Assembly (NCBI RefSeq): GCF_036365525.1
Contig: NW_027141701.1
Span: 62,001-126,000, forward strand
DNA length: 64,000 nt
Direction of reading: 5' to 3'
DNA from: Heterodontus francisci
Taxonomy: Eukaryota
Of the stretch, positions 8,233-63,128 are shown piece by piece (the first letter of the stretch is position 1; each line of letters begins with the position of its first letter). Under the pieces are notes generated by a model. The model made no database searches, was not told the origin of the DNA, and saw nothing but the letters and a program-made list of their open reading frames with translations. A program made the translations under genes and the position numbers.

Positions 8233-8244
8233 GGGAAGTAAAGA

Positions 8245-11633: not shown

Positions 11634-11841
11634 CATTTATGTGTATGTTTATAAACATTGTGTATATTTCACACTGTGTTCACACAGTGAGGCCTCCCCC
11701 AGTCCATCATCTCTGTGTTGATAAACAGTGAAGTGCATTGCACTGTTTGCTCGCACTGTGAGGCCTCCCCCAGTCCATCATCTCTGTGTTGATAAACAGT
11801 GAAGTGCATTGCACTGTGTGCTCGCACTGTGAGGCCTCCCC

Positions 11842-36600: not shown

Positions 36601-39600
36601 ATCTCTCCCTCTGAGCTCTCTGTGACCACACCCTCCAATCTCTCTCTCTGATCTCTCTGTGACCACACCCTCCAATCCCTCCCTCTGATCTCTCAGTGAC
36701 CACACCCACCAATCTCTCCCTCTGATCTCTCGGTGACCACACTCTCCAATCTCTCTCTCTGATCTCTCTGTGACCACACGCTCCAATCTCTCTCTCTGAT
36801 CTCTCTGTGACCACACCCACCAATCTCTCCCTCTGAGCTCTCTGTGACCACACCCTCCAATCACTGTCTCTGATCTCTCTGTGACCACACACTCCAATCT
36901 TTCCCTCTGATCTCTCTGTGACCACACACTAGAATCTCTCTCTCTGATCTCTCTGTGACCACACCCTCCAATCTCTCCCTCTGATCTCTCAGTGACCACA
37001 CCCACCAATCTCTCCCTCTGATCTCTCTGTGACCACACCCTCCAATCTCTCTGATCTCTCTGTGACCACACCCTCCAATCTCTCCCTCTGAGCTCTCTGT
37101 GCCACACCCTCCAATCTTTCCCTCTGATCTCTCTGTGACCACACCCTCCAATCTCTCCCTCTGATCTCTCTGTGACCACAGCCTCCAATCTCTCCCTCTG
37201 ATCTCTCTGTGACATCCCACCAATCTCTCCCTCTGACCTCTCTGTGACCACACCCTCCAATCTCTCCCTCTGATCTCTCTGTGACCACACCCTCCAATCT
37301 CTCCCTCTGAGCTCTCTGTGCCTCACCCCCCAATCTTTCCCTCTGATCTCTCTGTAACCACACCCTCCAATCTCTCTCTCTGATCTCTCTGTGACCACAC
37401 CCCCCAATCTTTCCCTCTGATCTCTCTGTGACCACACCCTCCAATCACTCTCTCAGATCTCTCTGTGTCCACACCCTCCAATCTCTCTCTCTGATCTCTC
37501 TGTGACCACACCCTCCAATCTCTCACTCTGATCTCTCTGTGACCACACCCTCCAATCACTCTCTCAGATCTCTCTGTGACCACACCCTCCAATCTCTCTC
37601 TCTGATCTCTCTGTGACCACACCCTCCAATCTCTCTCTCTGATCTCTCTGTGACCACACCCGCCAATCTCTCCCTCTGAGCTCTCTGTACCACACCCTCC
37701 AATCTCTCCCTCTGATCTCTCTGTGACCACACCCTCCAATCTCTCCCTCTGAGCTCTCTGTGACCACTCCCTCCAATCTCTCCCTCTGATCTCTCTGTGA
37801 CCACACCCACCAATCTCTCCCTCTGATCTCTCTGTGACCACACCCTCCAATCTCTCCCTCTGATCTCTCTTTGACCACACCCACCAATCTCTCCCTCTGA
37901 TCTCTCTGTGACCACACCCACCAATCTCTCCCTCTGATCTCTCTGTGACCACACCCTCCAATCTCTCTCTCTGACCTCTCTGTGACCACACCCTCCAATC
38001 TCTCCCTCTGATCTCTCTGTGACCACACCCTCCAATCTCTCTGATCTCTCTGTGACCACACCCTCCAATCTCTCCCTCTGAGCTCTCTGTGCCACACCCT
38101 CCAATCTTTCCCTCTGATCTCTCTGTGACCACACCCTCCAATCTCTCCCTCTGATCTCTCTGTGACCACAGCCTCCAATCTCTCCCTCTGATCTCTCTGT
38201 GACCACAGCCTCCAATCTCTCCCTCTGATCTCTCTGTGACATCCCACCAATCTCTCCCTCTGACCTCTCTGTGACCGCACCCTCCAATCTCTCCCTCTGA
38301 TCTCTCTGTGACCACACCCTCCAATCTCTCCCTCTGAGCTCTCTGTGCCACACCCCCCAATCTTTCCCTCTGATCTCTCTGTAACCACACCCTCCAATCT
38401 CTCTCTCTGATCTCTCTGTGACCACACCCTCCAATCTCTCACTCTGACCTCTCTGTGACCACACCCTCCAATCACTCTCTCAGATCTCTCTGTGTCCACA
38501 CCCTCCAATCTCTCTCTCTGATCTCTCTGTGACCACACCCTCCAATCTCTCACTCTGATCTCTCTGTGACCACACCCTCCAATCACTCTCTCAGATCTCT
38601 CTGTGACCACACCCTCCAATCTCTCTCTCTGATCTCTCTGTGACCACACCCTCCAATCTCTCTCTCTGATCTCTCTGTGACCACACCCGCCAATCTCTCC
38701 CTCTGAGCTCTCTGTACCACACCCTCCAATCTCTCTCTCTGATCTCTCTGTGACCACACCCTCCAATCTTTCCCTCTGATCTCTCTGTGACCACACCCTC
38801 CAATCTCTCCCTCTGATCTCTCTGTGACCACACCCACCAATCTCTCCCTCTGATCTCTCTGTGACCACACCCTCCAATCTCTCCCTCTGATCTCTCTGTG
38901 ACCACACCCTCCAATCTCTCTCTCTGATCTCTCTGTGACCACACCCTCCAATCTTTCCCTCTGATCTCTCTGTGACCACACCCACCAATCTCTCCCTCTG
39001 ATCTCTCAGTGACCACACCCTCCAATCTCTCCCTCTGAGCTCTCTGTGACCACACCCTCCAATCTCTCCCTCTGAGCTCTCTGTGACCACACCCTCCAAT
39101 CTCTCTCTCTGATCTCTCTGTGACCACACCCTCCAATCCCTCCCTCTGATCTCTCAGTAACCACACCCACCAATCTCTCCCTCTGATCTCTCGGTGACCA
39201 CACTCTCCAATCTCTCTCTCTGATCTCTCTGTGACCACACGCTCCAATCTCTCTCTCTGATCTCTCTGTGACCACACCCACCAATCTCTCCCTCTGAGCT
39301 CTCTGTGACCACACCCTCCAATCACTCTCTCTGATCTCTCTGTGACCACACACTCTAATCTTTCCCTCTGATCTCTCTGTGACCACACACTAGAATCTCT
39401 CTCTCTGATCTCTCTGTGACCACACCCTCCAATCTCTCCCTCTGATCTCTCAGTGACCACACCCACCAATCCCTCCCTCTGATCTCTCTGTGACCACACC
39501 CTCCAATCTCTCTCTCTGATCTCTCTGTGACCACACCCTCCAATCTCTCCCTCTGAGCTCTCTGTGCCACACCCTCCAATCTTTCCCTCTGATCTCTCTG

Positions 39601-42260
39601 TGACCACACCCTCCAATCTCTCCCTCTGATCTCTCTGTGACCACAGCCTCCAATCTCTCCCTCTGATCTCTCTGTGACATCCCACCAATCTCTCCCTCTG
39701 ACCTCTCTGTGACCGCACCCTCCAATCTCTCCCTCTGATCTCTCTGTGACCACACCCTCCAATCTCTCCCTCTGAGCTCTCTGTGCCACACCCCCCAATC
39801 TTTCCCTCTGATCTCTCTGTAACCACACCCTCCAATCTCTCTCTCTGATCTCTCTGTGACCACACCCTCCAATCTCTCACTCTGACCTCTCCGTGACCAC
39901 ACCCTCCAATCACTCTCTCAGATCTCTCTGTGTCCACACCCTCCAATCTCTCTCTCTGATCTCTCTGTGACCACACCCTCCAATCTCTCACTCTGATCTC
40001 TCTGTGACCACACCCTCCAATCACTCTCTCAGATCTCTCTGTGACCACACCCTCCAATCACTCTCTCTGATCTCTCTGTGACCACACCCTCCAATCTCTC
40101 TCTCTGATCTCTCTGTGACCACACCCGCCAATCTCTCCCTCTGAGCTCTCTGTACCACACCCTCCAATCTCTCTCTCTGATCTCTCTGTGACCACACCCT
40201 CCAATCTTTCCCTCTGATCTCTCTGTGACCACACCCTCCAATCTCTCCCTCTGATCTCTCTGTGACCACACCCACCAATCTCTCCCTCTGATCTCTCTGT
40301 GACCACATCCTCCAATCTCTCCCTCTGATCTCTCTGTGACCACACCCTCCAATCTCTCTCTCTGATCTCTCTGTGACCACACCCTCCAATCACTCTCTCT
40401 GATCTCTCTGTGACCACACCCTCCAATCTTTCCCTCTGATCTCTCTGTGACCACACCCACCAATCTCTCCCTCTGATCTCTCAGTGACCACACCCTCCAA
40501 TCTCTCCCTCTGAGCTCTCTGTGACCACACCCTCCAATCTCTCCCTCTGAGCTCTCTGTGACCACACCCTCCAATCTCTCTCTCTGATCTCTCTGTGACC
40601 ACACCCTCCAATCCCTCCCTCTGATCTCTCAGTGACCACACCCACCAATCTCTCCCTCTGATCTCTCGGTGACCACACTCTCCAATCTCTCTCTCTGATC
40701 TCTCTGTGACCACACGCTCCAATCTCTCTCTCTCTGATCTCTCTGTGACCACACCCACCAATCTCTCCCTCTGAGCTCTCTGTGACCACACCCTCCAATC
40801 ACTCTCTCTGATCTCTCTGTGACCACACACTAGAATCTCTCTCTCTGATCTCTCTGTGACCACACCCTCCAATCTCTCCCTCTGATCTCTCAGTGACCAC
40901 ACCCACCAATCTCTCCCTCTGATCTCTCTGTGACCACACCCTCCAATCTCTCCCTCTGATCTCTCAGTGACCACACCCACCAATCTCTCCCTCTGATCTC
41001 TCTGTGACCACACCCTCCAATCTCTCCCTCTGATCTCTCTGTGACCACACCCTCCAATCTCTCTCTCTGATCTCTCTGTGACCACACCCTCCAATCACTC
41101 TCTCTGATCTCTCTGTGACCACACCCTCCAATCTTTCCCTCTGATCTCTCTGTGACCACACCCACCAATCACTCTCTCTGATCTCTCAGTGACCACACCC
41201 TCCAATCTCTCCCTCTGAGCTCTCTGTGACCACACCCTCCAATCTCTCCCTCTGAGCTCTCTGTGACCACACCCTCCAATCTCTCTCTCTGATCTCTCTG
41301 TGACCACACCCTCCAATCCCTCCCTCTGATCTCTCAGTGACCACACCCACCAATCTCTCCCTCTGATCTCTCGGTGACCACACTCTCCAATCTCTCCCTC
41401 TGATCTCTCTGTGACCACACGCTCCAATCTCTCTCTCTGATCTCTCTGTGACCACACCCACCAATCTCTCCCTCTGAGCTCTCTGTGACCACACCCTCCA
41501 ATCACTCTCTCTGATCTCTCTGTGACCACACACTAGAATCTCTCTCTCTGATCTCTCTGTGACCACACCCTCCAATCTCTCCCTCTGATCTCTCAGTGAC
41601 CACACCCACCAATCTCTCCCTCTGATCTCTCTGTGACCACACACTCCAATCTCTCCCTCTGATCTCTCAGTGACCACAGCCACCAATCTCTCCCTCTGAT
41701 CTCTCTGTGACCACACCCTCCAATTTCTCTCTCTGTTCTCTCTGTGACCACACCCTCCAATCTCTCCCTCTGAGCTCTCTGTGCCACACCCTCCAATCTC
41801 TCCCTCTGATCTCACTGTGACCACACCCTCCAATCTCTCCCTCTGAGCTCTCTGTGCCACACCCTCCAATCACTCTCTCTGATCTCTCTGTGACCACACC
41901 CTCCAATCTCTCCCTCTGATCTCTCTGGGACCACACCCTCCAATCTCTCCCTCTGATCTCTCTGTGACCACACCCTCCAATCTCTCTGTGACATCCCTCC
42001 AATCTCGCCCAGTTCCCTCCAAAATCTCCCTCAGATTTATCCCCCACCGCTCCAATCTTCCCCTGATCCCCCTCCAAAATCTCCCTCTGATCTCCCATAG
42101 GCCCCCCACCAATTTCTCCCACCAAACTCTCCCTCAGATTTCTCCCTCTGATCTCTATCTGTATTCCCTCTAATTCCTCTATGATTGCTCCTTGACCCTT
42201 TCTCTCTCTTTCTCTGATATATGACACACCCTCCCCTCTGATCATTCTGTATTGTCTCTG
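27655..42260. repeat. 37-bp satellite array, about 380 copies, core 27890-41990
   Basis: Unit ccctccaatctctccctctgatctctctgtgaccaca with 35- and 33-bp deletion variants and degenerate CT-rich edges. Confidence 0.98.
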
Positions 42261-42830: not shown

Positions 42831-45800
42831 TGGCACCTCCGACACTGCAGCTCTCCCTCAGTACCGACCCACCAACAATGCAGCACTCCCTCAGCACCGA
42901 CTCACCAACAATGCAGCACTCCCTCAGCACCGACTCACCAACAATGCAGCACTCCCTCAGTACTGACCCACCGACAGTGCAGCACTCCCTCAATACTGAC
43001 CCTCTGACAATGCAGCACTCCCTCAGGACCGACCCACTGACAGTGCAGCTGTCCCTCAGTACTGACCCACCGACAGTGCAGCTCTCCCTCAGTACCGACC
43101 CACCGACAATGCAGCTGTCCCTCAGTACTGACCCACCGACAGTGCAGCACTCCCTCAGTACTGACCCTCTGACAATGCAGCCCTCCCTCAGTACCGACCC
43201 ACTGACAATGCAGCTCTCCCTCAGTACTGACCCACCGACACTGCAGCCTTCCCTCAGTACTGACCCACCGACAATGCAGCACTCCCTCAGTACCGACCCA
43301 CTGACAATGCAGCTCTCCCTCAGTACTGACCCACCGACAGTGCAGCACACCCTCAGTACTTACCCTCTGACAGTGCAGCCCTCCCTCAGTACTGACCCAC
43401 CTACAGTGCAGCTCTCCCTCAGTACCGACCCACCGACAATGCAGCACTCCCTCAGTACTTACCCTCTGACAGTCCAGCCCTCCCTCAGTACTGACCCACC
43501 GAAAGTGCAGCCCTCCCTCAGTACTGACCCACCGACAGTGCAGCACTCCCTCAGTACTGACCCACCGACAGTGCAGCACTCCCTCAGTACTGACCCTCTG
43601 ACAGTGCAGCTCTCCCTCAGTACCAACCCACCGACAATGCAGCTCTCCCTCAGTACCGACCCACCGACAATGCAGCTGTCCCTCAGTACTTACTCTCTGA
43701 AAGTGCAGCCCTCCCTCAGTATTGACCCTCTGACAATGCAGCTCACCCTCTGTACCGACCCACCGACAGTGCAGCTCTCCCTCAGTACTGACCCACCGAC
43801 AGTGCAGCTCTCCCTCAGTACTGACCCACCGACAGTGCAGCTTTCCCTCAGTACTGACCCACCGACAATGCAGCACTCCCTCAGTACCGACCCACTGACA
43901 ATGCAGCTCTCCCTCAGTACTGACCCACCGACAGTGCAGCACACCCTCAGTACTTATCCTCTGACAGTGCAGCCCTCCCTCAGTACTGACCCACCGACAG
44001 TGCAGCTCTCCCTCAGTACCGACCCACCGACAATGCAGCACTCCCTCAGTACTTACCCTCTGACAGTGCAGCCCTCCCTCAGTACTGACCCACCGACAAT
44101 GCAGCACTCCCTCAGTACTGACCCACCGACAGTGCAGCACTCCCTCAGTACTGACCCACCGACAATGCAGCACTCCCTCAGTACTGACCCACCGACAGTG
44201 CAGCACTCCCTCAGTTCTGACCCTCTGACAATGCAGCACTCCCTCAGTACCGACCCACTGACGGTGCAGCTCTCCCTCAGTACTGACCCACCGACAGTGC
44301 AGCTCTCCCTCAGTACCGACCCACCGACAATGCAGCTGTCCCTCAGTACTGACCCTCTGACAGTGCAGCCCTCCCTCAGTATTGACCCTCTGACAATGCA
44401 GCTCTCTCTCAGTACCGACCCACCGACAGTGCAGCTCTCCCTCAGTACTGACCCACCGACAGTGCAGCTCTCCCTCAGTACCGACCCACCGACAATGCAG
44501 CTGTCCCTCAGTACTTACCCTCTGACAGTGCAGCCCTCCCTCAGTACTGACCCTCTGACAATGCAGCACTCCTTCAGTACTGACCCACCGACAGTGCAGC
44601 TCTCCCTCAGTACCGACCCACCGACAATGCAGCTGTCCCTCAGTACTTACCCTCTGACAGTGCAGCCCTCCCTCAGTACTTACCCTCTGACAGTGCAGCC
44701 CTCCCTCAGTACTTACCCTCTGACAGTGCAGCCCTCCCTCAGTACTTACCCTCTGACAATGCAGCTTTCCCTCAATACTGACCCACCGACAATGCAGCTC
44801 TCCCTCAGTACTGACCCACCGACAGTGCAGCTCTCCCTCAGTACTGACCCACCGACAGTGCAGCTCTCCCTCAGTACTGACCCACCGACAGTGCAGCACT
44901 CCCTCAGTACTGACCCAACGACACTGCAGCTTTCCCTCAGGACTGACCCACCGACAATGCAGCACTCCCTCAGTACCGACCCACTGACAATGCAGCTCTC
45001 CCGCAGTACTGACCCACCGACAGTGCAGCACTCCCTCAGTACTTATCCTCTGACAGTGCAGCCCTCCCTCAGTACCGACCCACCGACAATGCAGCACTCC
45101 CTCAGTACTTACCCTCTGACAGTGCAGCCCTCCCTCAGTACTGACCCACCGACAGTGCAGCTCTCCCTCAGTACCGACCCACCGACAATGCAGCACTCCC
45201 TCAGTACTTACCCTCTGACAGTGCAGCCCATCTCAGTACTGACCCACCGACAGTGCAGCCCTCCCTCAGTACTGACCCACCGACAGTGCAGCACTCCCTC
45301 AGTACTGACCCACCGACAGTGCAGCACTCCCTCAGTACTGACCCTCTGACAGTGCAGCTCTCCCTCAGTACCGACCCACCGACAATGCAGCTGTCCCTCA
45401 GTACTTACTCTCTGACAGTGCAGCCCTCCCTCAGTATTGACCCTCTGACAATGCAGCTCACCCTCTGTACCGACCCACCGACAGTGCAACTCTCCCTCAG
45501 TACTGACCCACCGACAGTGCAGCTCTCCCTCAGTACTGACCCACCGACAATGCAGCACTCCCTCAGTACCGACCCACTGACAATGCAGCTCTCCCTCAGG
45601 ACTGACCCACCGACAGTGCAGCACTCCCTCAGTACTTATCCTCTGACAGTGCAGCCCTCCCTCAGTACTGACCCACCGACAGTGCAGCTCTCCCTCAGTA
45701 CCGACCCACCGACAATGCAGCACTCCCTCAGTACTTACCCTCTGACAGTGCAGCCCTCCCTCAGTACTGACCCACCGACAATGCAGCACTCCCTCAGTAC

Positions 45801-48800
45801 TGACCCACCGACAATGCAGCACTCTCTCAGTACTGACCCACCGCAAATGCAGCTGTCCCTCAGTACTTACCCTCTGACAGTGCAGCCCACCCTCAGTATT
45901 GACCCTCTGACAGTGCAGCACTCCCTCAGTACTGACCCTCTGACAATGCAGCCCTCCCTCAGTACCGACCCACCGACAGTGCAGCTCTCCCTCAGTACTG
46001 ACCCTCTGACAGTGCAGCTCTCCCTCAGTACCGACCCACCGACAATGCAGCTGTCCCTCAGTACTTACTCTCTGACAGTGGAGCCCTCCCTCAGTATTGA
46101 CCCTCTGACAATGCAGCTCACCCTCTGTACCGACCCACCGACAGTGCAGCTCTCCCTCAGTACTGACCCACCGACAGTGCAGCTCTCCCTCAGTACTGAC
46201 CCACCGACAGTGCAGCTTTCCCTCAGTACTGACCCACCGACAATGCAGCACTCCCTCAGTACCGACCCACTGACAATGCAGCTCTCCCTCAGTACTGACC
46301 CACCGACAGTGCAGCACACCCTCAGTACTTATCCTCTGACAGTGCAGCCCTCCCTCAGTACTGACCCACCGACAGTGCAGCTCTCCCTCAGTACCGACCC
46401 ACCGACAATGCAGCACTCCCTCAGTACATACCCTCTGACAGTGCAGCCCTCCCTCAGTACTGACCCACCGACAATGCAGCACTCCCTCAGTACTGACCCA
46501 CCGACAGTGCAGCACTCCCTCAGTACTGACCCACCGACAATGCAGCACTCCCTCAGTACTGACCCACCGACAGTGCAGCACTCCCTCAGTACTGACCCTC
46601 TGACAATGCAGCACTCCCTCAGTACCGATCCACTGACCTTGCAGCTCTCCCTCAGTCCTGACCCACCGACAGTGCAGCTCTCCCTCAGTACCGACCCACC
46701 GACAATGCAGCTGTCCCTCAGTACTGACCCTCTGACAGTGCAGCCCTCCCTCAGTATTGACCCTCTGACAATGCAGCTCTCTCTCAGTACCGACCCACCG
46801 ACAGTGCAGCTCTCCCTCAGTACTGACCCACCGACAGTGCAGCTCTCCCTCAGTACCGACCCACCGACAATGCAGCTGTCCCTCAGTACTTACCCTCTGA
46901 CAGTGCAGCCCTCCCTCAGTACTGACCCTCTGACAATGCAGCACTCCTTCAGTACTGACCCACCGACAGTGCAGCTCTCCCTCAGTACCGACCCACCGAC
47001 AATGCAGCTGTCCCTCAGTACTTACCCTCTGACAGTGCAGCCCTCCCTCAGTACTTACCCTCTGACAGTGCAGCCCTCCCTCAGTACTTACCCTCTGACA
47101 GTGCAGCCCTCCCTCAGTACTTACCCTCTGACAATGCAGCTTTACCTCAATACTGACCCACCGACAATGCAGCTCTCCCTCAGTACTGACCCACCGACAG
47201 TGCAGCTCTCCCTCAGTACTGACCCACCGACAGTGCAGCTCTCCCTCAGTACTGACCCACCGACAGTGCAGCACTCCCTCAGTACTGACCCAAAGACACT
47301 GCAGCTTTCCCTCAGGACTGACCCACCGACAATGCAGCACTCCCTCAGTACCGACCCACTGACAATGCAGCTCTCCCGCAGTACTGACCCACCGACAGTG
47401 CAGCACTCCCTCAGTACTTATCCTCTGACAGTGCAGCCCTCCCTCAGTACTCACCCACCGACAGTGCAGCTCTCCCTCAGTACCGACCCACCGACAATGC
47501 AGCACTCCCTCAGTACTTACCCTCTGACAGTGCAGCCCTCCCTCAGTACTGACCCACCGACAGTGCAGCTCTCCCTCAGTACCGACCCACCGACAATGCA
47601 GCACTCCCTCAGTACTTACCCTCTGACAATGCAGCCCATCTCAGTACTGACCCACCGACAGTGCAGCCCTCCCTCAGTACTGACCCACCGACAGTGCAGC
47701 ACTCCCTCAGTACTGACCCACCGACAGTGCAGCTGTCCCTCAGTACTTACCCTCTGACAGTGCTGCCCTCCCTCAGTACTTACCCTCTGACAGTGCAGCC
47801 CTCCCTCAGTACTTACCCTCTGACAGTGCAGCCCTCCCTCAGTACTTACCCTCTGACAATGCAGCTTTCCCTCAATACTGACCCACCGACAATGCAGCTC
47901 TCCCTCAGTACTGACCCACCGACAGTGCAGCTCTCCCTCAGTCCTGACCCACCGACAGTGCAGCTCTCCCTCAGTACTGACCCACCGACAGTGCAGCACT
48001 CCCTCAGTACTGACCCAACGACACTGCAGCTTTCCCTCAGGACTGACCCACCGACAATGCAGCACTCCCTCAGTACCGACCCACTGACAATGCAGCTCTC
48101 CCTCAGTACTGACCCACCGACAGTGCAGCACTCCCTCAGTACTTATCCTCTGACAGTGCAGCCCTCCCTCAGTACTGACCCACCGACAGTGCAGCTCTCC
48201 CTCAGTACCGACCCACCGACAATGCAGCACTCCCTCAGTACTTACCCTCTGACAGTGCAGCCCTCCCTCAGTACTGACCCACCGCAAATGCAGCTGTCCC
48301 TCAGTACTTACCCTCTGACAGTGCAGCCCTCCCTCAGTATTGACCCTCTGACAGTGCAGCACTCCCTCAGTACTGACCCTCTGACAATGCAGCCCTCCCT
48401 CAGTACCGACCCACCGACAGTGCAGCTCTCCCTCAGTACTGACCCACCGACAGTGCAGCTCTCCCTCAGTACCGACCCACCGACAATGCAGCTATCCCTC
48501 AGTACTTACTCTCTGACAGTGCAGCCCTCCCTCAGTATTGACCCTCTGACAATGCAGCTCACCCTCTGTACCGACCCACCGACAGTGCAGCTCTCTCTCA
48601 GTACTGACCCACCGACAGTGCAGCTCTCCCTCAGTACCGACCCACCGACAATGCAGCTGTCCCTCAGTACTTACCCTCTGACAGTGCAGCCCTCCCTCAG
48701 TATTGACCCTCTGACAGTGCAGCACTCCCTCAGTACTGACCCTCTGACAGTGCAGCCCTCCCTCAGTACTGACCCACCGACAGTGCAGCACTCCCTCAGT

Positions 48801-51800
48801 ACTGACCCTCTGACAGTGCAGCTCTCCCTCAGTACCGACCCACCGACAATGCAGCTATCCCTCAGTACTTACTCTCTGACAGTGCAGCCCTCCCTCAGTA
48901 TTGACCCTCTGACAATGCAGCTCACCCTCTGTACCGACCCACCGACAGTGCAGCTCTCCCTCAGTACTGACCCACCGACAGTGCAGCTCTCCCTCAGTAC
49001 TGACCCACCGACAGTGCAGCTTTCCCTCAGTACTGACCCACCGACAATGCAGCACTCCCTCAGTACCGAACCACTGACAATGCAGCTCTCCCTCAGTACT
49101 GACCCACCGACAGTGCAGCACACCCTCAGTACTTATCCTCTGACAGTGCAGCCCTCCCTCAGTACTGACCCACCGACAGTGCAGCTCTCCCTCAGTACCG
49201 ACCCACCGACAATGCAGCACTCCCTCAGTACTTACCCTCTGACAGTGCAGCCCTCCCTCAGTACTGACCCACCGACAATGCAGCACTCCCTCAGTACTGA
49301 CCCACCGACAGTGCAGCACTCCCTCAGTACTGACCCACCGACAATGCAGCACTCCCTCAGTACTGACCCACCGACAGTGCAGCACTCCCTCAGTACTGAC
49401 CCTCTGACAATGCAGCACTCCCTCAGTACCGACCCACTGACCGTGCAGCTCTCCCTCAGTACTGACCCACCGACAGTGCAGCTCTCCCTCAGTACCGACC
49501 CACCGACAATGCAGCTGTCCCTCAGTGCTGACCCTCTGACAGTGCAGCCCTCCCTCAGTATTGACCCTCTGACAATGCAGCTCTCTCTCAGTACCGACCC
49601 ACCGACAGTGCAGCTCTCCCTCAGTACTGACCCACCGACAGTGCAGCTCTCCCTCAGTACCGACCCACCGACAATGCAGCTGTCCCTCAGTACTTACCCT
49701 CTGACAGTGCAGCCCTCCCTCAGTACTGACCCTCTGACAATGCAGCACTCCTTCAGTACTGACCCACCGACAGTGCAGCTCTCCCTCAGTACCGACCCAC
49801 CGACAATGCAGCTGTCCCTCAGTACTTACCCTCTGACAGTGCAGCCCTCCCTCAGTACTTACCCTCTGACAGTGCAGCCCTCCCTCAGTACTTACCCTCT
49901 GACAGTGCAGCCCTCCCTCAGTACTTACCCTCTGACAATGCAGCTTTACCTCAATACTGACCCACCGACAATGCAGCTCTCCCTCAGTACTGACCCACCG
50001 ACAGTGCAGCTCTCCCTCAGTACTGACCCACCGACAGTGCAGCTCTCCCTCAGTACTGACCCACCGCCAGTGCAGCACTCCCTCAGTACTGACCCAACGA
50101 CACTGCAGCTTTCCCTCAGGACTGACCCACTGACAATGCAGCACTCCCTCAGTACCGACCCACTGACAATGCAGCTCTCCCGCAGTACTGACCCACCGAC
50201 AGTGCAGCACTCCCTCAGTACTTATCCTCTGACAGTGCAGCCCTCCCTCAGTACTGACCCACCGACAGTGCAGCTCTCCCTCAGTACCGACCCACCGACA
50301 ATGCAGCTGTCCCTCAGTGCTGACCCTCTGACAGTGCAGCCCTCCCTCAGTATTGACCCTCTGACAATGCAGCTCTCTCTCAGTACCGACCCACCGACAG
50401 TGCAGCTCTCCCTCAGTACTGACCCACCGACAGTGCAGCTCTCCCTCAGTACCGACCCACCGACAATGCAGCTGTCCCTCAGTACTTACCCTCTGACAGT
50501 GCAGCCCTCCCTCAGTACTGACCCTCTGACAATGCAGCACTCCTTCAGTACTGACCCACCGACAGTGCAGCTCTCCCTCAGTACCGACCCACCGACAATG
50601 CAGCTGTCCCTCAGTACTTACCCTCTGACAGTGCAGCCCTCCCTCAGTACTTACCCTCTGACAGTGCAGCCCTCCCTCAGTACTTACCCTCTGACAGTGC
50701 AGCCCTCCCTCAGTACTTACCCTCTGACAATGCAGCTTTACCTCAATACTGACCCACCGACAATGCAGCTCTCCCTCAGTACTGACCCACCGACAGTGCA
50801 GCTCTCCCTCAGTACTGACCCACCGACAGTGCAGCTCTCCCTCAGTACTGACCCACCGCCAGTGCAGCACTCCCTCAGTACTGACCCAATGACACTGCAG
50901 CTTTCCCTCAGGACTGACCCACTGACAATGCAGCACTCCCTCAGTACCGACCCACTGACAATGCAGCTCTCCCGCAGTACTGACCCACCGACAGTGCAGC
51001 ACTCCCTCAGTACTTATCCTCTGACAGTGCAGCCCTCCCTCAGTACTGACCCACCGACAGTGCAGCTCTCCCTCAGTACCGACCCACCGACAATGCAGCA
51101 CTCCCTCAGTACTTACCCTCTGACAGTGCAGCCCTCCCTCAGTACTGACCCACCGACAGTGCAGCTCTCCCTCAGTACCGACCCACCGACAATGCAGCAC
51201 TCCCTCAGTACTTACCCTCTGACAGTGCAGCCCATCTCAGTACTGACCCACCGACAGTGCAGCCCTCCCTCAGTACTGACCCACCGACAGTGCAGCACTC
51301 CCTCAGTACTGACCCACCGACAGTGCAGCACTCCCTCAGTACTGACCCTCTGACAGTGCAGCTCTCCCTCAGTACCGACCCACCGACAATGCAGCTGTCC
51401 CTCAGTACTTACTCTCTGACAGTGCAGCCCTCCCTCAGTATTGACCCTCTGACAATGCAGCTCACCCTCTGTACCGACCCACCGACAGTGCAACTCTGCC
51501 TCAGTACTGACCCACCGACAGTGCAGCTCTCCCTCAGTACTGACCCACCGACAATGCTGCACTCCCTCAGTCCCGACCCACTGACAATGCAGCTCTCCCT
51601 CAGTACTGACCCACCGACAGTGCAGCACTCCCTCAGTACTTATCCTCTGACAGTGCAGCCCTCCCTCAGTACTGACCCACCGACAGTGCAGCTCTCCCTC
51701 AGTCCGGACCCACCGACAATGCAGCACTCCCTCAGTACTTACCCTCTGACAGTGCAGCCCTCCCTCAGTACTGACCTACCGACAATGCAGCACTCCCTCA

Positions 51801-54800
51801 GTACTGACCCACCGACAGTGCAGCCCTCCCTCAGTACTGACCCACCGACAATGCAGCACTCCCTCAGTACTGACCCACCGACAGTGCAGCACTCCCTCAG
51901 TACTGACCCTCTGACAATGCAGCACTCCCTCAGTACCGACCCACTGACCGTGCAGCTCTCCCTCAGTACTGACCCACCGACAGTGCAGCTCTCCCTCAGT
52001 ACCGACCCACCGACAATGCAGCTGTCCCTCAGTACTTACCCTCTGACAGTGCAGCCCTCCCTCAGTATTGACCCTCTGACAATGCAGCTATCTCTCAGTA
52101 CCGACCCACCGACAGTGCCGCTCTCCCTCAGTACTGACCCACCGACAGTGCAGCTCTCCCTCAGTACCGACCCACCGACAATGCAGCTGTCCCTCAGTAC
52201 TTACCCTCTGACAGTGCAGCCCTCCCTCAGTACTGACCCTCTGACAATGCAGCACTCCTTCAGTACTGACCCACCGACAGTGCAGCTCTCCCTCAGTACC
52301 GACCCACCGACAATGCAGCTGTCCCTCAGTACTTACCCTCTGACAGTGCAGCCCTCCCTCAGTACTTACCCTCTGACAGTGCAGCCCTCCCTCAGTACTT
52401 ACCCTCTGACAGTGCAGCCCTCCCTCAGTCCTTACCCTCTGACAATGCAGCTTTCCCTCAATACTGACCCACCGACAATGCAGCTCTCCCTCAGTACTGA
52501 CCCACCGACAGTGCAGCTCTCCCTCAGTCCTGACCCACCGACAGTGCAGCTCTCCCTCAGTACTGACCCACCGACAGTGCAGCACTCCCTCAGTACTGAC
52601 CCAACGACACTGCAGCTTTCCCTCAGGACTGACCCACCAACAATGCAGCACTCCCTCAGTACCGACCCACTGACAATGCAGCTCTCCCTCAGTACTGACC
52701 CACCGACAGTGCAGCACTCCCTCAGTACTTATCCTCTGACAGTGCAGCCCTCCCTCAGTACTGACCCACCGACAGTGCAGCTCTCCCTCAGTACCGACCC
52801 ACCGACAATGCAGCACTCCCTCAGTACTTACCCTCTGACAGTGCAGCCCTCCCTCAGTACCGACCCACCGCAAATGCAGCTGTCCCTCAGTACTTTCCCT
52901 CTGACAGTGCAGCACTCCCTCAATACTCACCCTCTGACAATGCAGCCCTCCCTCAGTATTGACCCTCTGACAGTGCAGCACTCCCTCAATACTGACCCTC
53001 TGACAATGCAGCCCTCCCTCAGTACTGACCCACCGACAGTGCAGCTCTCCCTCAGTACTGACCCACCGACAGTGCAGCTCTCCCTCAGTACCGACCCACC
53101 TACAATGCAGCTGTCCCTCAGTACTTACCCTCTGACAGTGCAGCCCTCCCTCAGTATTGACCCTCTGACAGTGCAGCACTCCCTCAGTACTGACCCTCTG
53201 ACAATGCAGCACTCCCTCAGTACTTACCCTCTGACAGTGCAGCCCTCCCTCAGTACTTACCCTCTGACAGTGCAGCCCTCCCTCAGTACTTACCCTCTGA
53301 CAATGCAGCTTTCCCTCAGTACTGACCCACCGACTGTGCAGCCCTCCCTCAAAACTTACCCTCTGACAGTGCAGCCCTCCCTCAGTACTTACCCTCTGAC
53401 AATGCAGCTTTCCCTCAGTGCTGACCCACCGACAGTGCAGCACTCCCTCAGTACTGACCCACCGACAGTGCAGCACTCCCTCAGTACTGACCCTCTGACA
53501 GTGCAGCTCTCCCTCAGTACCGACCCACCGACAATGCAGCTGTCCCTCAGTACTTACTCTCTGACAGTGCAGCCCTCCCTCAGTATTGACCCTCTGACAA
53601 TGCAGCTCACCCTCTGTACCGACCCACCGACAGTGCAACTCTGCCTCAGTACTGACCCACCGACAGTGCAGCTCTCCCTCAGTACTGACCCACCGACAAT
53701 GCTGCACTCCCTCAGTCCCGACCCACTGACAATGCAGCTCTCCCTCAGTACTGACCCACCGACAGTGCAGCACTCCCTCAGTACTTATCCTCTGACAGTG
53801 CAGCCCTCCCTCAGTACTGACCCACCGACAGTGCAGCTCTCCCTCAGTCCGGACCCACCGACAATGCAGCACTCCCTCAGTACTTACCCTCTGACAGTGC
53901 AGCCCTCCCTCAGTACTGACCTACCGACAATGCAGCACTCCCTCAGTACTGACCCACCGACAGTGCAGCCCTCCCTCAGTACTGACCCACCGACAATGCA
54001 GCACTCCCTCAGTACTGACCCACCGACAGTGCAGCACTCCCTCAGTACTGACCCTCTGACAATGCAGCACTCCCTCAGTACCGACCCACTGACCGTGCAG
54101 CTCTCCCTCAGTACTGACCCACCGACAGTGCAGCTCTCCCTCAGTACCGACCCACCGACAATGCAGCTGTCCCTCAGTACTTACCCTCTGACAGTGCAGC
54201 CCTCCCTCAGTATTGACCCTCTGACAATGCAGCTCTCTCTCAGTACCGACCCACCGACAGTGCCGCTCTCCCTCAGTACTGACCCACCGACAGTGCAGCT
54301 CTCCCTCAGTACCGACCCACCGACAATGCAGCTGTCCCTCAGTACTTACCCTCTGACAGTGCAGCCCTCCCTCAGTACTGACCCTCTGACAATGCAGCAC
54401 TCCTTCAGTACTGACCCACCGACAGTGCAGCTCTCCCTCAGTACCGACCCACCGACAATGCAGCTGTCCCTCAGTACTTACCCTCTGACAGTGCTGCACT
54501 CCCTCAGTACTTACCCTCTGACAGTGCAGCCCTCCCTCAGTACTTACCCTCTGACAGTGCAGCCCTCCCTCAGTCCTTACCCTCTGACAATGCAGCTTTC
54601 CCTCAATACTGACCCACCGACAATGCAGCTCTCCCTCAGTACTGACCCACCGACAGTGCAGCTCTCCCTCAGTCCTGACCCACCGACAGTGCAGCTCTCC
54701 CTCAGTACTGACCCACCGACAGTGCAGCACTCCCTCAGTACTGACCCAACGACACTGCAGCTTTCCCTCAGTACTGACCCACCGACAGTGCAGCACTCCC

Positions 54801-55832
54801 TCAGTACTTATCCTCTGACAGTGCAGCCCTCCCTCAGTACTGACCCACCGACAGTGCAGCTCTCCCTCAGTACCGACCCACCGACAATGCAGCACTCCCT
54901 CAGTACTTACCCTCTGACAGTGCAGCCCTCCCTCAGTACCGACCCACCGCAAATGCAGCTGTCCCTCAGTACTTTCCCTCTGACAGTGCAGCACTCCCTC
55001 AATACTCACCCTCTGACAATGCAGCCCTCCCTCAGTATTGACCCTCTGACAGTGCAGCACTCCCTCAATACTGACCCTCTGACAATGCAGCCCTCCCTCA
55101 GTACTGACCCACCGACAGTGCAGCTCTCCCTCAGTACTGACCCACCGACAGTGCAGCTCTCCCTCAGTACCGACCCACCTACAATGCAGCTGTCCCTCAG
55201 TACTTACCCTCTGACAGTGCAGCCCTCCCTCAGTATTGACCCTCTGACAGTGCAGCACTCCCTCAGTACTGACCCTCTGACAATGCAGCACTCCCTCAGT
55301 ACTTACCCTCTGACAGTGCAGCCCTCCCTCAGTACTTACCCTCTGACAGTGCAGCCCTCCCTCAGTACTTACCCTCTGACAATGCAGCTTTCCCTCAGTA
55401 CTGACCCACCGACTGTGCAGCCCTCCCTCAAAACTTACCCTCTGACAGTGCAGCCCTCCCTCAGTACTTACCCTCTGACAATGCAGCTTTCCCTCAGTGC
55501 TGACCCACCGACAATGCAGCTGCCCCTCAGTACTTACCCTCTGACAGCACAGCACTCCCTCAGTACTTACCCTCTGACAGTGCAGCCCTCCCTCAGTATT
55601 TACCCTCTGACAATGCAGCCCTCCTTCAGTACTGCCCCTCCGACAGTGCTGTGCTCTCTCAGTACCGACCCTCCGACAGTGCAGCACTCCCTCAGGACTG
55701 ACCCACCGACAGTGCAGCACTCCCTCAGTACTGCCCCTCCGACAGTGCTGTGCTCTCTCAGTACCGACCCTCCGACTGTGCAGCACTCCCTCCGTACTGA
55801 CCCTCCGACAGTGCAGCACTCCCTCAGTACTG
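42831..55832. repeat. 33-bp satellite array, about 394 copies
   Basis: Unit cagtgcagcactccctcagtactgacccaccga; 11-aa periodicity; three 32-bp variants shift the frame. Confidence 0.98.
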
Positions 55833-55984: not shown

Positions 55985-56569
55985 CTGGTCTTGATAATGA
56001 GGTTCACTCTCCTCAGGTATAGGTCATTCCTTTCGGGTTTGGTGAGGTGACCCTGTTATGTATTCCACTCCTGCTAACTTTCTGCAGTTGTGTTTGTGTT
56101 TAACAAACTTGCTGGTGTATTTTGCAATGATCTTATAGGGCTCTGTCTCTGTGCATTGGGAACAGAGAGACCTCAGGTTTCTGAACAGCACAAACCTTGT
56201 AAGCATCTGACATTTCAACATTCCTTCCAGACACAACATGTAGATGCAGTTATCCATTATATATTCAACACACATCCCCACCACAGAGAACACATCAGAG
56301 CCCAGTTTACCCGCGTTTCCTGTTATAGTCACCAGGATGGGCTCCTGTACCCACAACCATAAACTGTCTACAATTTCTATGTAACATGACTGAGCTTCAT
56401 ATTCTGGGATAACCAGCCTGTTAAAGCCTGAAAGTGAAGCAAGTTTCCCTTTCCTCATTGTCTGGGTTTGACACTGTGAGGTATGTGTGATGGTCAATAA
56501 CGATCCAGTGTTTATCAATAAATCCTGTCTGTGGCCAACCAGAACAACTGGGTAAAGCAACCCCATCAC
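55985..56569 (-). pseudogene. pol: ERV-B aspartic protease plus RT N-terminus remnant
   Basis: 'LLINTGS' (DTG with D to N), flap-like 'LSGF', 'KLGSDVF' (ILGxD); then 'KHKHNCRK..GVEYITGSPHQTRKE*PIPEES' resembling the pre-RT QYP motif. Confidence 0.7.
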
Positions 56570-59500
56570 ATCAGACCCTCACTCCGACTGTGGGAAGACC
56601 ACTCCCTCCTCACGCCCCTATCACATCAGACCCTCACTCCGACTGTGGGGAGACCACTCCCTCCTCACGCCCCTATCACATCAGACTCTCCTTCCGGCTG
56701 TGGGGAGAACACCCCACCTCACTCTCCCATCATATTGGACCCTTATACCAGCTGTAGGGACACCACTCCTCCCTCAATCCTCCATCAGCTTGGACACTCA
56801 CTCCAACTGTGGGGAGACCACTCCCTCCACCCTAACCTATCACATCGGACACTCACTCCAACTGTGGGGAGACCACTCCCTCCTCCCTAACCCATCACAT
56901 TGGACCCTCACTCTCAACTGTGGGGAGACCACTCCCTCCACCCGAACTCATCACATCGGACACTCACTCCAACTGTAGGGAGACCACTCCCTCCACCCTA
57001 ACCTATCACATCGGACCCTCACTCCAACTGTGGGGAGACCACTCCCTCCTCCCTAACCGATTACATCGGACACTCACTCTAACTGTGGGGAGACCACTCC
57101 CTCCACCCTAACCTATCACATCGGACCCTCACTCCAACTGTGGGGAGACCACTCCCTCCTCCATAACCGATCACATCGGACACTCACTCCAACTGTAGGG
57201 AGCCCACTCCCTCCTCCCTAACCTATCACATCGGACCCTCACTCCAACTGTGGGGAGCCCACTCCCTCCTCCCTAACCCATCACATTGGACCCTCACTCC
57301 AACCGTAGGGAGCCCACTCCCTCCTCCCTAACCCATCACATTGGACCCTCACTCTCAACTGTGGGGAGACCACTCCCTCCTCCCTAACCTATCACATCGG
57401 ACCCTCACTCTCAACTGTGGGGAGCCCACTCCCTCCTCCCTAACCCATCACATTGGACTCTCACTCCAACTGTGGGGAGACCACTCCCTCCTCCCTCAAT
57501 CCTCCATCAGATTGGACCCTCACTCCAACTGTGGGGAGACCACTCCCTCCTCCCTAACCGATCACATCGGACCCTCACTCCAACTGTGGGGAGACCACTC
57601 CCTCCTCCCTAACCCATCACATTGGACCCTCACTCCAACTGTGGGGAGACCACTCCCTCCTCCCTAACCGATCACATCGGACACTCACTCCAACTGTGGG
57701 GAGACCACTCCCTCCTCCCTAACCCATCACATTGGACCCTCACTCCAACTGTGGGGAGACCACTCCCTCCTCCCTAACCCATCACATTGGACCCTCACTC
57801 CAACTGTGGGGAGACCACTCCCTCCTCCCTAACCGATCACATCGGACACTCACTCCAACTGTGGGGAGACCACTCCCTCCTCCCTAACCGATCACATCGG
57901 ACACTCACTCCAACTGTGGGGAGACCACTCCCTCCTCCCTAACCTATCACATCGGACCCTCACTCCAACTGTGGGGAGACCACTCCCTCCTCCCTAACCG
58001 ATCACATCGGACACTCACTCCAACTGTGGGGAGACCACTCCCTCCTCCCTAACCGATCACATCGGACACTCACTCCAACTGTGGGGAGCCCACTCCCTCC
58101 TCTCTAACCCATCACATTGGACACTCACTCCAACTGTAGAGAGACCACTCCCTCCACCCTAACCTATCACATCGGACCCTCACTCCAACTGTGGGGAGAC
58201 CACTCCCTCCTCCCTAACCGATTACATCGGACACTCACTCTAACTGTGGGGAGACCACTCCCTCCACCCTAACCTATCACATCGGACCCTCACTCCAACT
58301 GTGGGGAGACCACTCCCTCCTCCATAACCGATCACATCGGACACTCACTCCAACTGTAGGGAGCCCACTCCCTCCTCCCTAACCTATCACATCGGACCCT
58401 CACTCCAACTGTGGGGAGCCCACTCCCTCCTCCCTAACCCATCACATTGGACCCTCACTCCAACCGTAGGGAGCCCACTCCCTCCTCCCTAACCCATCAC
58501 ATTGGACCCTCACTCTCAACTGTGGGGAGACCACTCCCTCCTCCCTAACCTATCACATCGGACCCTCACTCTCAACTGTGGGGAGCCCACTCCCTCCTCC
58601 CTAACCCATCACATTGGACTCTCACTCCAACTGTGGGGAGACCACTCCCTCCTCCCTCAATCCTCCATCAGATTGGACCCTCACTCCAACTGTGGGGAGA
58701 CCACTCCCTCCTCCCTAACCGATCACATCGGACCCTCACTCCAACTGTGGGGAGACCACTCCCTCCTCCCTAACCCATCACATTGGACCCTCACTCCAAC
58801 TGTGGGGAGACCACTCCCTCCTCCCTAACCGATCACATCGGACACTCACTCCAACTGTGGGGAGACCACTCCCTCCTCCCTAACCCATCACATTGGACCC
58901 TCACTCCAACTGTGGGGAGACCACTCCCTCCTCCCTAACCCATCACATTGGACCCTCACTCCAACTGTGGGGAGACCACTCCCTCCTCCCTAACCGATCA
59001 CATCGGACACTCACTCCAACTGTGGGGAGACCACTCCCTCCTCCCTAACCGATCACATCGGACACTCACTCCAACTGTGGGGAGACCACTCCCTCCTCCC
59101 TAACCTATCACATCGGACCCTCACTCCAACTGTGGGGAGACCACTCCCTCCTCCCTAACCGATCACATCGGACACTCACTCCAACTGTGGGGAGACCACT
59201 CCCTCCTCCCTAACCGATCACATCGGACACTCACTCCAACTGTGGGGAGCCCACTCCCTCCTCTCTAACCCATCACATTGGACACTCACTCCAACTGTAG
59301 AGAGACCACTCCCTCCTCCCTAACCTATCACATCGGACCCTCACTCTCAACTATGGGGAGACCACTCCCTCCTCCCTAACCTATCACATCGGACCCTCAC
59401 TCTCAACTGTGGGGAGCCCACTCCCTCCTCCCTAACTCATCACATCGGACCCTCACTCAACTGTGGGGAGCCCACTCCCTCCTCCCTAACCTATCACATC

Positions 59501-61400
59501 GGACCCTCACTCTCAACTGTGGGGAGACCACTCCCTCCTCCCTAACCGATCACATCGGACACTCACTCCAACTGTGGGGAGCCCACTCCCTCCTCCCTAA
59601 CCTATCACATCGGACCCTCACTCAACTGTGGGGAGCCCACTCCCTCCTCCCTAACCTATCACATCGGACCCTCACTCCAACTGTAGGGAGCCCACTCCCT
59701 CCTCCCTAACCCATCACATTGGACCCTCACTCTCAACTGTGGGGAGACCACTCCCTCCTCCCTAACCCATCACATTGGACCCTCACTCTCAACTATGGGG
59801 AGCCCACTCCCTCCTCCCTAACCTATCACATCGGACCCTCACTCCAACTGTGGGGAGCCCACTCCCTCCTCCCTAACCCATCACATTGGACCCTCACTCC
59901 AACCGTAGGGAGCCCACTCCCTCCTCCCTAACCCATCACATTGGACCCTCACTCTCAACTGTGGGGAGACCACTCCCTCCTCCCTAACCTATCACATCGG
60001 ACCCTCACTCTCAACTGTGGGGAGCCCACTCCCTCCTCCCTAACCCATCACATTGGACTCTCACTCCAACTGTGGGGAGACCACTCCCTCCTCCCTCAAT
60101 CCTCCATCAGATTGGACCCTCACTCCAACTGTGGGGAGACCACTCCCTCCTCCCTAACCGATCACATCGGACCCTCACTCCAACTGTGGGGAGACCACTC
60201 CCTCCTCCCTAACCCATCACATTGGACCCTCACTCCAACTGTGGGGAGACCACTCCCTCCTCCCTAACCGATCACATCGGACACTCACTCCAACTGTGGG
60301 GAGACCACTCCCTCCTCCCTAACCCATCACATTGGACCCTCACTCCAACTGTGGGGAGACCACTCCCTCCTCCCTAACCCATCACATTGGACCCTCACTC
60401 CAACTGTGGGGAGACCACTCCCTCCTCCCTAACCGATCACATCGGACACTCACTCCAACTGTGGGGAGACCACTCCCTCCTCCCTAACCGATCACATCGG
60501 ACACTCACTCCAACTGTGGGGAGACCACTCCCTCCTCCCTAACCTATCGCATCGGACCCTCACTCCAACTGTGGGGAGACCACTCCCTCCTCCCTAACCG
60601 ATCACATCGGACACTCACTCCAACTGTGGGGAGACCACTCCCTCCTCCCTAACCGATCACATCGGACACTCACTCCAACTGTGGGGAGCCCACTCCCTCC
60701 TCTCTAACCCATCACATTGGACACTCACTCCAACTGTAGAGAGACCACTCCCTCCTCCCTAACCTATCACATCGGACCCTCACTCTCAACTATGGGGAGA
60801 CCACTCCCTCCTCCCTAACCTATCACATCGGACCCTCACTCTCAACTGTGGGGAGCCCACTCCCTCCTCCCTAACTCATCACATCGGACCCTCACTCAAC
60901 TGTGAGGAGCCCACTCCCTCCTCCCTAACCTATCACATCGGACCCTCACTCTCAACTGTGGGGAGACCACTCCCTCCTCCCTAACCGATCACATCGGACA
61001 CTCACTCCAACTGTGGGGAGCCCACTCCCTCCTCCCTAACCTATCACATCGGACCCTCACTCAACTGTGGGGAGCCCACTCCCTCCTCCCTAACCTATCA
61101 CATCGGACCCTCACTCCAACTGTAGGGAGCCCACTCCCTCCTCCCTAACCCATCACATTGGACCCTCACTCTCAACTGTGGGGAGACCACTCCCTCCTCC
61201 CTAACCCATCACATTGGACCCTCACTCTCAACTATGGGGAGACCACTCCCTCCTCCCTAACCTATCACATCGGACCCTCACTCTCAACTGTGGGGAGCCC
61301 ACTCCCTCCTCCCTAACCTATCGCATTGGACCCTCACTCTCAACTGTGGGGAGACCACTCCCTCCTCCCTAACCCATCACATTGGACCCTCACTCCTGAC
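56560..61400. repeat. 55-bp satellite array, about 88 copies
   Basis: Unit ccactccctcctccctaacccatcacattggaccctcactccaactgtggggaga; 110-bp spacing between 57611 and 57721. Confidence 0.97.
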
Positions 61401-61487: not shown

Positions 61488-62330
61488 TCAGCTTGCTGCA
61501 GCCACTCTCTCAGTAATCTTCTCCATGTTCAGCAGAGTTTCTAATCGCTCAATCTGTTGTCCAAAGCAGTGAATGTGATCACTTTCTCCTCCATCTCCTC
61601 CCTAGGGAGCTCGTCCAAAGTGTGGACCCCCTTTCTCTCCCAGATCTCCAATTCCTGTCCACATGACCTGGTTTATCACAGTTCGAGTAGTTCAGACTGT
61701 GTGTGGCTCGCTTGTGGACTGGCTCAGTCCCAGTCTCTGTCCCTAGTGGGACAAGGCTCGTCCACAGCTGAGACCTGCCTTTTCTGAGTCTCCGCTGCTC
61801 AAACTCACTCACCTGCTGGATGATCCCAACCTGGTGTCACCTCTTATCTAGCTTGTTCCCAGTCCAATCCTGTGTGGACCGACACTCCCACCTTCTCCTT
61901 TAGAATGGGAGATAATCAAACAAGGAATAAGGATTTAAATCTGGGGTCTGTCATGGCTGGTGCTCACTTCCCTTCTCCTCCTGTCACCCCTACTCCCAAG
62001 ATATAAATGTTAAAGATGCTCTAGAATGTTTCAGGGCTCCTTGTCTTACTCCACCCGCCTGTGCTAATAGTTAGGCAGGGTCCATCCCTAAGATAGTCAG
62101 TATTGCCCTTGTCAGCAGGAACATCTCAATCAGTTGCATCTTCCAGCCCCTCCTGGACCATTCGCCGTTCCACCACACTTTTACATGTCTACTTTAAACC
62201 TGAGCAAACACGAGTTCCTGTTGACACTATTTGTGGTTTCCTGTATCTGGGGTTGACTTGGTCTGTGGTGCAGCCTTTAATGTTGCCTGTGTATCCTTTA
62301 GGTTACTTTTACAGCTACCTTCTCCCTTAA
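61488..62330 (-). pseudogene. gag: ERV-B gag remnant (coiled coil, MHR/CA-CTD, zinc knuckle)
   Basis: MHR-like 'VRQG' near 62040; 'DPRFKSLFLV*LSPILKEKV' at about 61890-61948; decayed CCHC knuckle 'YSNCDKPGHVDRNW' at 61648-61689; terminal '...ERVAAAS*' with TGA at 61488-61490. Confidence 0.7.
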
Positions 62331-62437
62331 CCCATTGTTTATCTTACAGTTTCCAATATCCCCTCCACACTGATTTGCCATCCTGCTTATTGACATTGGA
62401 GTGTCACTGGTCTTCCTTGGAGGTAGACTCACTCTGC

Positions 62438-62590
62438 AAACCTTTCCCTTTTTCAATTCACAGCTCCTGGTTTCTAAATCTTTTTCGCCCAGAGACTACT
62501 GTAGTTTTATTCTGATTGGACACAAATATGCCAACGAACCAATCAGTATGCAGCAGTCTGAATAACCAACAACATCTTCTGATTTAATGC
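62438..62590 (+). promoter_or_regulatory. MHC class I-type proximal promoter
   Basis: ISRE-like 'cctttcccttttc' near 62441; S/X-like 'acagctcc' and 'cccagagac'; Y box CTGATTGG (62512-62519); CCAATCAG (62539-62546) 19 nt further on. Confidence 0.55.
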
Positions 62591-62597
62591 AATCAGC

Positions 62598-62835
62598 ACT
62601 GGGCACAGCTCACAGACCCAGAACACGGGGCAGAGGAATCACACAGTCTGAACTGGACACAGCTCACAGACCCAGAACACGGGGCAGAGAAATCACACAG
62701 TCTGAACTGGGCACAGCTCACAGACCCAGAACACGGGGCAGAGGAATCACACAGTCTGAACTGGACACAGCTCACAGACCCAGAACACGGGGCAGAGGAA
62801 TCACACAGTCTGAACTGGACACAGCTCAGAGCCCG
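62598..62835. repeat. 54-bp tandem repeat, about 4.3 copies
   Basis: Unit g(g/a)cacagctcacagacccagaacacggggcagaggaatcacacagtctgaactg. Confidence 0.95.
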
Positions 62836-62899
62836 AGACAGTATTTGGGAAAAGGATTCCCCACAAACTGTTCATCCCAGACTGTTGAGGGAAGCAACA

Positions 62900-62948
62900 A
62901 TGATTGGAGTGATAGAACTGGTCCTCCTGTGTGGAGGAGTCTCTGCAG
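62900..62948 (+). CDS. Leader (signal peptide) exon 1 of a probable MHC class I heavy-chain gene or pseudogene
   Basis: Kozak-like acaATG; MIGVIELVLLCGGVSA + G; consensus phase-1 donor CAG|GTGAGT; closely resembles shark class I leaders as recalled (MIGLIVLxLLCGxVSA). Confidence 0.7.
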
Positions 62949-63128
62949 GTGAGTAATGGGGACTGAGAGGGTCTCAGTGCCAGGCTGGGTACTGGGGCAT
63001 TAACCCTTGGTCAGTGGGTAATGGGCTCTGAGAGGACTCAGTGCCAGGCTGGGTACTGGGGCATTAACCCTTGGTCAGTGGGTAATGGGCTCTGAGAGGG
63101 TTTCAGTGCTAGACTGGGCACTGGGACT
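62949..63128. repeat. 64-65-bp tandem repeat, about 2.8 copies, at the start of the intron
   Basis: Units start at 62949, 63014 and 63078. Confidence 0.9.

Follow-up and report, generated by a model that had tools for sequence, protein, structure and literature searches.

At its 3′ end, the window (the whole 64-kb stretch of horn shark, Heterodontus francisci, DNA analysed here) very probably holds the start of an MHC class I gene: its promoter, its 5′ UTR and its leader exon. The gene would be one of the recently multiplied shark copies of the UAA-2, or class Ia-like, type. An ATG at position 62900 opens a 49-nt coding exon of 16 codons plus one nucleotide, which reads MIGVIELVLLCGGVSA and stops in phase 1 at a GT donor, giving the separate phase-1 leader exon that marks class I genes. 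The same leader heads the horn shark RefSeq class I proteins P0001, P0002 and P0004–P0017, and it occurs exactly in 17 of the 158 proteins compared. Exon 2 lies beyond the window end, more than 1 kb from exon 1; because exons 2 onward fall outside the window, the tie between this copy and an intact gene runs through its paralogs. The original prediction had proposed a class I leader exon with a phase-1 donor and, by implication, a shark origin, and both proposals are borne out, the first by RefSeq leader identity and family contigs and the second by the horn shark class I matches. It had also called the gene start hidden, which holds for the ORF track only, since RefSeq already annotates the family: exon 1 is real and belongs to a known kind of gene.

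Comparison with the horn shark proteins places the exon within this family. The 41-residue in-frame piece that ends at the donor matches three of 11 candidates, all of them Heterodontus francisci class I (98%, 98% and 72%). The P0002 cluster has 39 members; among the 15 listed, the 14 examined all carry the exact leader with GSHSLRYF directly behind it, and P0001 and P0002 themselves do too. P0002 carries MHC_I (E 6.5e-53) and C1-set domains, with 6LUP as its best solved-structure match, and the paralogs contain alpha1-alpha2, a C1-set alpha3 and a transmembrane segment, parts that at this locus would lie beyond the window end. Six horn shark variants differ by only 1–6 of 270 residues. At least five near-identical versions lie on one 74.5-Mb contig, and accession blocks indicate six loci; further family models sit on small scaffolds and may be haplotype duplicates. 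The other galeomorph clusters looked up, a selection that was not exhaustive, each look like the isoforms of a single gene. Four annotated isoforms (P0005, P0006, P0007 and P0011) have no transmembrane exon and would be secreted. The RefSeq class I model P0003 has a LINE-derived N-terminal stretch, 72% identical to the window LINE at 15151-15258, which is probably an annotation artefact.

Table 1. Features of the horn shark window, in window coordinates
Feature	Position	Strand	Remark
Giant minisatellite array, 37-bp x383	27879-41986
Giant minisatellite array, 33-bp x394	42839-55832
Giant minisatellite array, 55-bp x87	56562-61396
Pyrimidine tract called ISRE-like, weak	62443..62454	+	fails the ISRE pattern used
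X1-box-like (RFX) site, putative	62488..62501	+	10 nt before Y box; putative function
Y box (inverted CCAAT, CTGATTGG)	62512..62519	+	likely NF-Y site
CCAAT box (CCAATCAG)	62539..62546	+	likely second NF-Y site
Upstream ATG, weak context	62587..62589	+	out of frame with leader here (313 nt)
Minisatellite, 54-bp x4.3, start region/5′ UTR	62598..62828	+	between CCAAT box and leader
Two extra bases in X1-X3 contigs, missing from window	62826..62827	+
kB-like GGATTCCCC inside transcribed 5′ UTR	62854..62862	+	~315 nt downstream of CCAAT
Exon 1 coding part: signal peptide MIGVIELVLLCGGVSA + 1 nt	62900..62948	+	phase 1
Splice donor GTGAGT	62949..62954	+	from sequence; contigs diverge here into alpha-1 exon
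Tandem array, 64-bp x2.7, opening intron 1 at donor	62949..63125	+

Sequencing contigs show how the exon is used in the family. Contigs from four of the five runs listed (X1, X2, X3 and X5) were aligned to positions 62300-63010; X1–X3 come from one sample, and their RNA status was guessed by the tool, none being recorded as RNA. The X1, X2 and X3 contigs leave the genome at 62949 and continue into sequence translating as GSHSLRYFYTA, the alpha-1 start of P0004. At the family level, then, the leader is spliced to an alpha-1 exon of the xHSLRYF-like kind that had been proposed as a check. Contig depth in X1–X3 reaches hundreds to thousands over the exon vs tens in the intron. X5, from another organism, gives only low-depth repeat-like pieces. 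One low-depth X3 contig matches 62319-62469, upstream of the promoter, without mismatches, and represents either genomic carry-over or an upstream transcript. Positions 62492-62587 are without contig cover in all four runs compared, and the contigs cannot show a start.

The window copy can be told apart from the transcribed form, because the contigs carry two bases missing from the window. Contigs spanning 62826 with the two extra bases account for all depth in X2 and X3 and for 6746 of 24496 in X1, where the depth of the next bin equals that of this one contig. The copy in the window may be weakly expressed, represent another allele or be mis-assembled. An unlikely but not negligible reading is that duplication from the expressed family left a copy here that is silent, truncated or pseudogenised, and may consist of an orphan exon 1 only. 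Its shorter form was unseen among the X1–X3 contigs listed at 62826, the family includes 5′-truncated models on a small scaffold (P0022 cluster) as well as variants at conserved sites, and the copy's surroundings are rich in satellite and LINE sequence. Yet nothing is damaged in its leader, ATG context, donor or promoter boxes, contigs drop rare variants, a further 35 contig pieces fall outside the listing, the RefSeq models P0004, P0008 and P0009 are intact and begin at this window-type leader ATG, and the two missing bases may reflect allelic variation or a fault of the assembly. The Glu in the hydrophobic core of the leader, once read as a hint of a non-classical gene or a pseudogene, is shared by nine other shark class I proteins compared, including UBA-clade Mustelus sequences; intact class I proteins of sharks often have it, and it does not support either reading, the pseudogene one being rejected. 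The family is also transcribed and spliced. Its non-classical nature, the other half of that suggestion, is nonetheless probable.

The start region and 5′ UTR hold a minisatellite whose 54-bp unit is also present in the RNA-type contigs. The horn shark RefSeq family (XP_067864975, XP_067864994, XP_067865947 and XP_067882270) shares the identical leader, the 5′ sequence and this unit, but here the unit is repeated in full four times and the upstream ATG is out of frame, whereas the extended RefSeq models listed have two, three or five units and an in-frame ATG. The in-frame ATG gives several paralog models N-terminal extensions of 69, 87 or 123 residues, and 10 of the 17 exact-leader models start there. 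It could be argued that the product normally carries such a repeat-encoded extension, with repeat number and the two-base indel switching between extended and plain leaders or repressing translation through an overlapping upstream ORF, all the more so as the transcribed contigs carry the frame-restoring form at 62826. This is improbable, slightly more so than a silent window copy: the context of the upstream ATG is weak, relatives in other sharks mostly begin at the plain leader, and gene models by default take the first in-frame ATG. The extensions are probable annotation by-products, and in the preferred reading of a plain UAA-2 leader, the transcript would start at the 54-bp repeats or inside them, and translation at 62900. 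A role for RNA structure in the 5′ UTR was rejected, as its folding is no better than that of shuffled sequences (z -0.36).

Upstream of the leader, the boxes point to a likely NF-Y-driven promoter, judging from the Y and CCAAT motifs and their position. The predicted ATTGG-19 nt-CCAAT arrangement is present, with cores at 62515 and 62539, and no other ATTGG/CCAAT pair spaced by 10–30 nt occurs on the + strand of the window. Chance was estimated from the window's 30,111 non-array bases, resampled 40 times under a first-order Markov model. The bare pattern ATTGG-N15-25-CCAAT was expected 1.1 times and observed once, which is chance level when taken alone; the fuller pairs, CTGATTGG with CCAATCAG and the X1-like site with CTGATTGG, arose in 0 of 40 resamples, although these patterns were picked post hoc. 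The site upstream of the Y box is one that we take to be X1-like by the X1 consensus, and this assignment is itself uncertain. NF-Y would bind the two boxes, and RFX might join it at the X1-like site. Between the latter and the Y box there is no CRE-like X2, and no S box was recognised by eye at 16 bp.

Two further promoter claims fared less well. The pyrimidine tract described as ISRE-like does not match the ISRE pattern applied. The kB-like sequence GGATTCCCC is present as reported, but it lies in the transcribed 5′ UTR. In the Markov resamples, GGATTCCCC was expected 0.33 times on either strand, while a looser kB pattern occurs 8 times vs 7.6 expected, chance level in non-array DNA. The site is also altered in one paralog type (DSPQ to DAPQ in P0014/P0017), and it was rejected as an enhancer A, of which it is probably not an equivalent.

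The lineage was examined in a set of 72 class I proteins, drawn from the 120 matches listed plus candidate matches, which covers cartilaginous fish and three outgroups and omits fused, partial and most bony-vertebrate rows. A quick alpha-3 tree of these 72 rows resolves three shark clades: UAA (6LUP, Triakis), UBA (O19479) and a third of 12 rows (SH-aLRT 99), which holds P0004, horn shark P0028 and sequences from Squalus, Heptranchias, Pristiophorus, Scyliorhinus, Stegostoma and Chiloscyllium. A 37-row IQ-TREE of alpha1-3 separates this third clade at 99.9/100; no ray member was found among the 120 matches listed. A narrower five-member galeomorph subclade is weak in the concatenated tree (51.5/74) and reaches 0.93 by FastTree on alpha1-2. 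P0004 is 78–87% identical in alpha1 and 79–84% in alpha2 to its Scyliorhinus, Stegostoma and Chiloscyllium relatives.

The closest named sequence is the nurse shark UAA-2 query in Supplementary File 10 of PMC10751288. Compared by eye, P0004 agrees with this query at 69/87 alpha1 and 72/91 alpha2 positions (~79%) and at 42/44 groove positions, and it shares the unusual alpha-3 type, so that all three domains group with UAA-2 as far as that supplement goes. The labelled UAA, UBA, UCA, UDA, UFA and UGA queries of the same file show no such agreement by eye, and UCA, UDA, UFA and UGA were rejected on that comparison; the UDA sequences, which otherwise invite comparison, are by eye clearly different from P0004. 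UBA was rejected as well, since the family lies outside the UBA alpha-3 clade anchored on O19479 and its anchors are not eroded; the alpha-1 start of O19479 agrees by eye with the UBA query of that supplement. Classical UAA was rejected because the family groups apart from it in the alpha-3 phylogeny, and the single locus and diverse groove of UAA are replaced here by at least five versions on one contig with 1–6/270 differences. That the exon belongs to a classical polymorphic UAA or a UBA gene with nearly the same leader is very improbable, for although MIGLxxLVLLCGGVSA-type leaders occur in UAA- and UBA-clade proteins and contigs of other class I genes align on the leader with 5–6 differences, only the horn shark RefSeq family combines the exact leader with the 24 residues before it and with the translated 54-bp repeat, and mismatch-free spliced contigs continue YFYTA as in P0004, where the horn shark UAA- and UBA-clade proteins examined differ.

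Extra "MHC-Ia-like" elasmobranch genes, varying in number between species, are mentioned as unpublished data in section 5 of Verissimo et al. 2023 (PMC10751288), whose catshark table marks two of them. We infer that "UAA-2" and the "MHC-Ia-like" lineage are the same. The family thus probably belongs to a little-described UAA-2/Ia-like lineage and, judged from its sequences, is probably non-classical.

The peptide-binding groove gives this lineage its character. For 44 positions of an assumed groove list, mapped by hand and motif, P0004 agrees with six galeomorph relatives at 86–95% (37/41 to 42/44) vs 75–80% outside the groove; the excess is significant in three of the six (p 0.009-0.038), the other three giving p 0.11-0.38. 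Against the three classical-clade proteins tested the pattern reverses, with 45–55% in the groove vs 72–78% outside. Against four horn shark proteins of the UAA clade, groove identity is 19–27/44; against 6LUP it is 21/44. By an assumed numbering, all 10 of the 10 anchor positions checked in P0004 are classical-type, and peptide binding by both termini is therefore likely. Taken together and by analogy, this is the profile expected of a fixed-groove, non-classical peptide presenter. Elsewhere in the third clade, P0023, P0024, P0026, P0027 and P0030 from Squalus, Heptranchias and Pristiophorus have diverse, classical-like grooves, and mean groove identity is 0.46 in a seven-protein set containing third-clade members of these genera. 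In these three genera the third alpha-3 type may thus belong to polymorphic class I molecules, with the galeomorph branch being the fixed one.

The rest of the window contains little beyond repeats. A Pfam scan of all 212 stop-to-stop frames of at least 55 aa outside the long arrays gave nothing beyond reverse transcriptase/endonuclease and sub-threshold matches; no domain of MHC, Ig or zinc-finger type appeared. Searching the window by tblastn with the 158 proteins compared revealed no class I exon except exon 1; outside it, the best matches were to the N-terminus of P0003, which is LINE-like, and, at 33%, to an alternative tail. The presence of a neighbouring paralog's 3′ end in the window is not supported by either search, and neither TAP1/2 nor PSMB8/9 was found in the 64 kb. 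Broken LINE-type elements lie at 3464-4178, 8187-13298, 14376-17356 and 19992-21479, the last as a 495-aa frame with a reverse transcriptase domain (E 6e-29). Half of the window, just before the promoter, is taken up by three back-to-back giant arrays, which give rise to long spurious ORFs. On the minus strand, 22746-23324, 27251-27553 and 56024-56578 resemble envelope, gag and integrase frames by eye, with no Pfam match at E 0.01; they are possibly decayed LTR element remnants, perhaps split by the arrays. The original prediction had placed the whole window in an MHC class I region. Its own content, only LINE remnants and satellites, does not speak for this, but placement in the wider MHC is a fair deduction because section 9 of PMC10751288 maps all elasmobranch class I genes there.

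The discovery of the gene is itself of little weight, since shark class I leader exons are textbook knowledge and the family is in RefSeq. The useful part is the lineage assignment: in the literature searched, with subscription journals and theses outside its coverage, UAA-2/Ia-like appears only as a remark and a labelled query, and no description or definition of the lineage or of the horn shark expansion was found. Cartilaginous fish are the oldest animals with an MHC. In the family, transcripts of exon 1 are joined in phase 1 to the alpha-1 exon, and the predicted product would be a signal-peptide-led heavy chain with an alpha1-alpha2 groove, a C1-set alpha3 and a transmembrane tail that some annotated isoforms lack. 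It would pair with beta-2-microglobulin and bind peptides by their termini like classical class I. Since groove residues hardly vary within or between species, the UAA-2 product would present a narrow and conserved range of peptides, an idea also put forward for teleost Z, UDA and HLA-E; this fixed groove with intact anchors also predicts a dedicated T- or NK-like receptor.

A broader proposal is possible but speculative: UAA-2 could be an undescribed shark counterpart of HLA-E or teleost Z, classical in appearance, with a groove kept constant in galeomorphs to fit a conserved peptide ligand, apparently single-copy in catsharks and carpet sharks and recently amplified in the horn shark to at least six near-identical, well-transcribed copies. 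The start-site minisatellite and two-base indel would then tune the output of each copy, and an X-Y module that has lost one helical turn and X2 would uncouple the genes from normal class I induction. The horn shark copies form a natural series for studying the effect of copy number and the start-site minisatellite on expression.

Several known systems frame this assignment. The window shares with the mammalian MHC class I SXY module a Y box followed by a CCAAT box and an X1-like site upstream. In mouse NLRC5 targets the X-Y spacing is 20–22 bp and is called critical by Ludigs et al. 2015 (PMC4374748), whereas the window has a gap of 10 nt from an uncertainly assigned X1 and neither X2 nor a recognisable S box. 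The mammalian kB site lies upstream, and the kB-like site here lies downstream of the boxes. Ia-like genes are reported with zinc-finger neighbours in PMC10751288, whose main text does not mention the horn shark; a six-frame search of the window, mostly satellite, gave 0 C2H2 motifs. Classical shark UAA (nurse shark 6LUP and Triakis alleles) resembles the family in leader type, terminal anchor residues and best solved-structure match, but UAA is single, polymorphic and in its own clade, whereas the horn shark family is multi-copy and nearly monomorphic, with an alpha-3 only 34–43% identical to that of UAA-clade proteins. Shark UDA keeps its anchors, conserves its groove across species and is a fixed-groove non-classical molecule, and a narrow, conserved peptide set has been proposed for HLA-E. 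Teleost Z1, as described in PMC4364491, shows the same fixed-groove, non-classical class I profile, with anchors kept and a groove conserved across species, as in the horn shark family.
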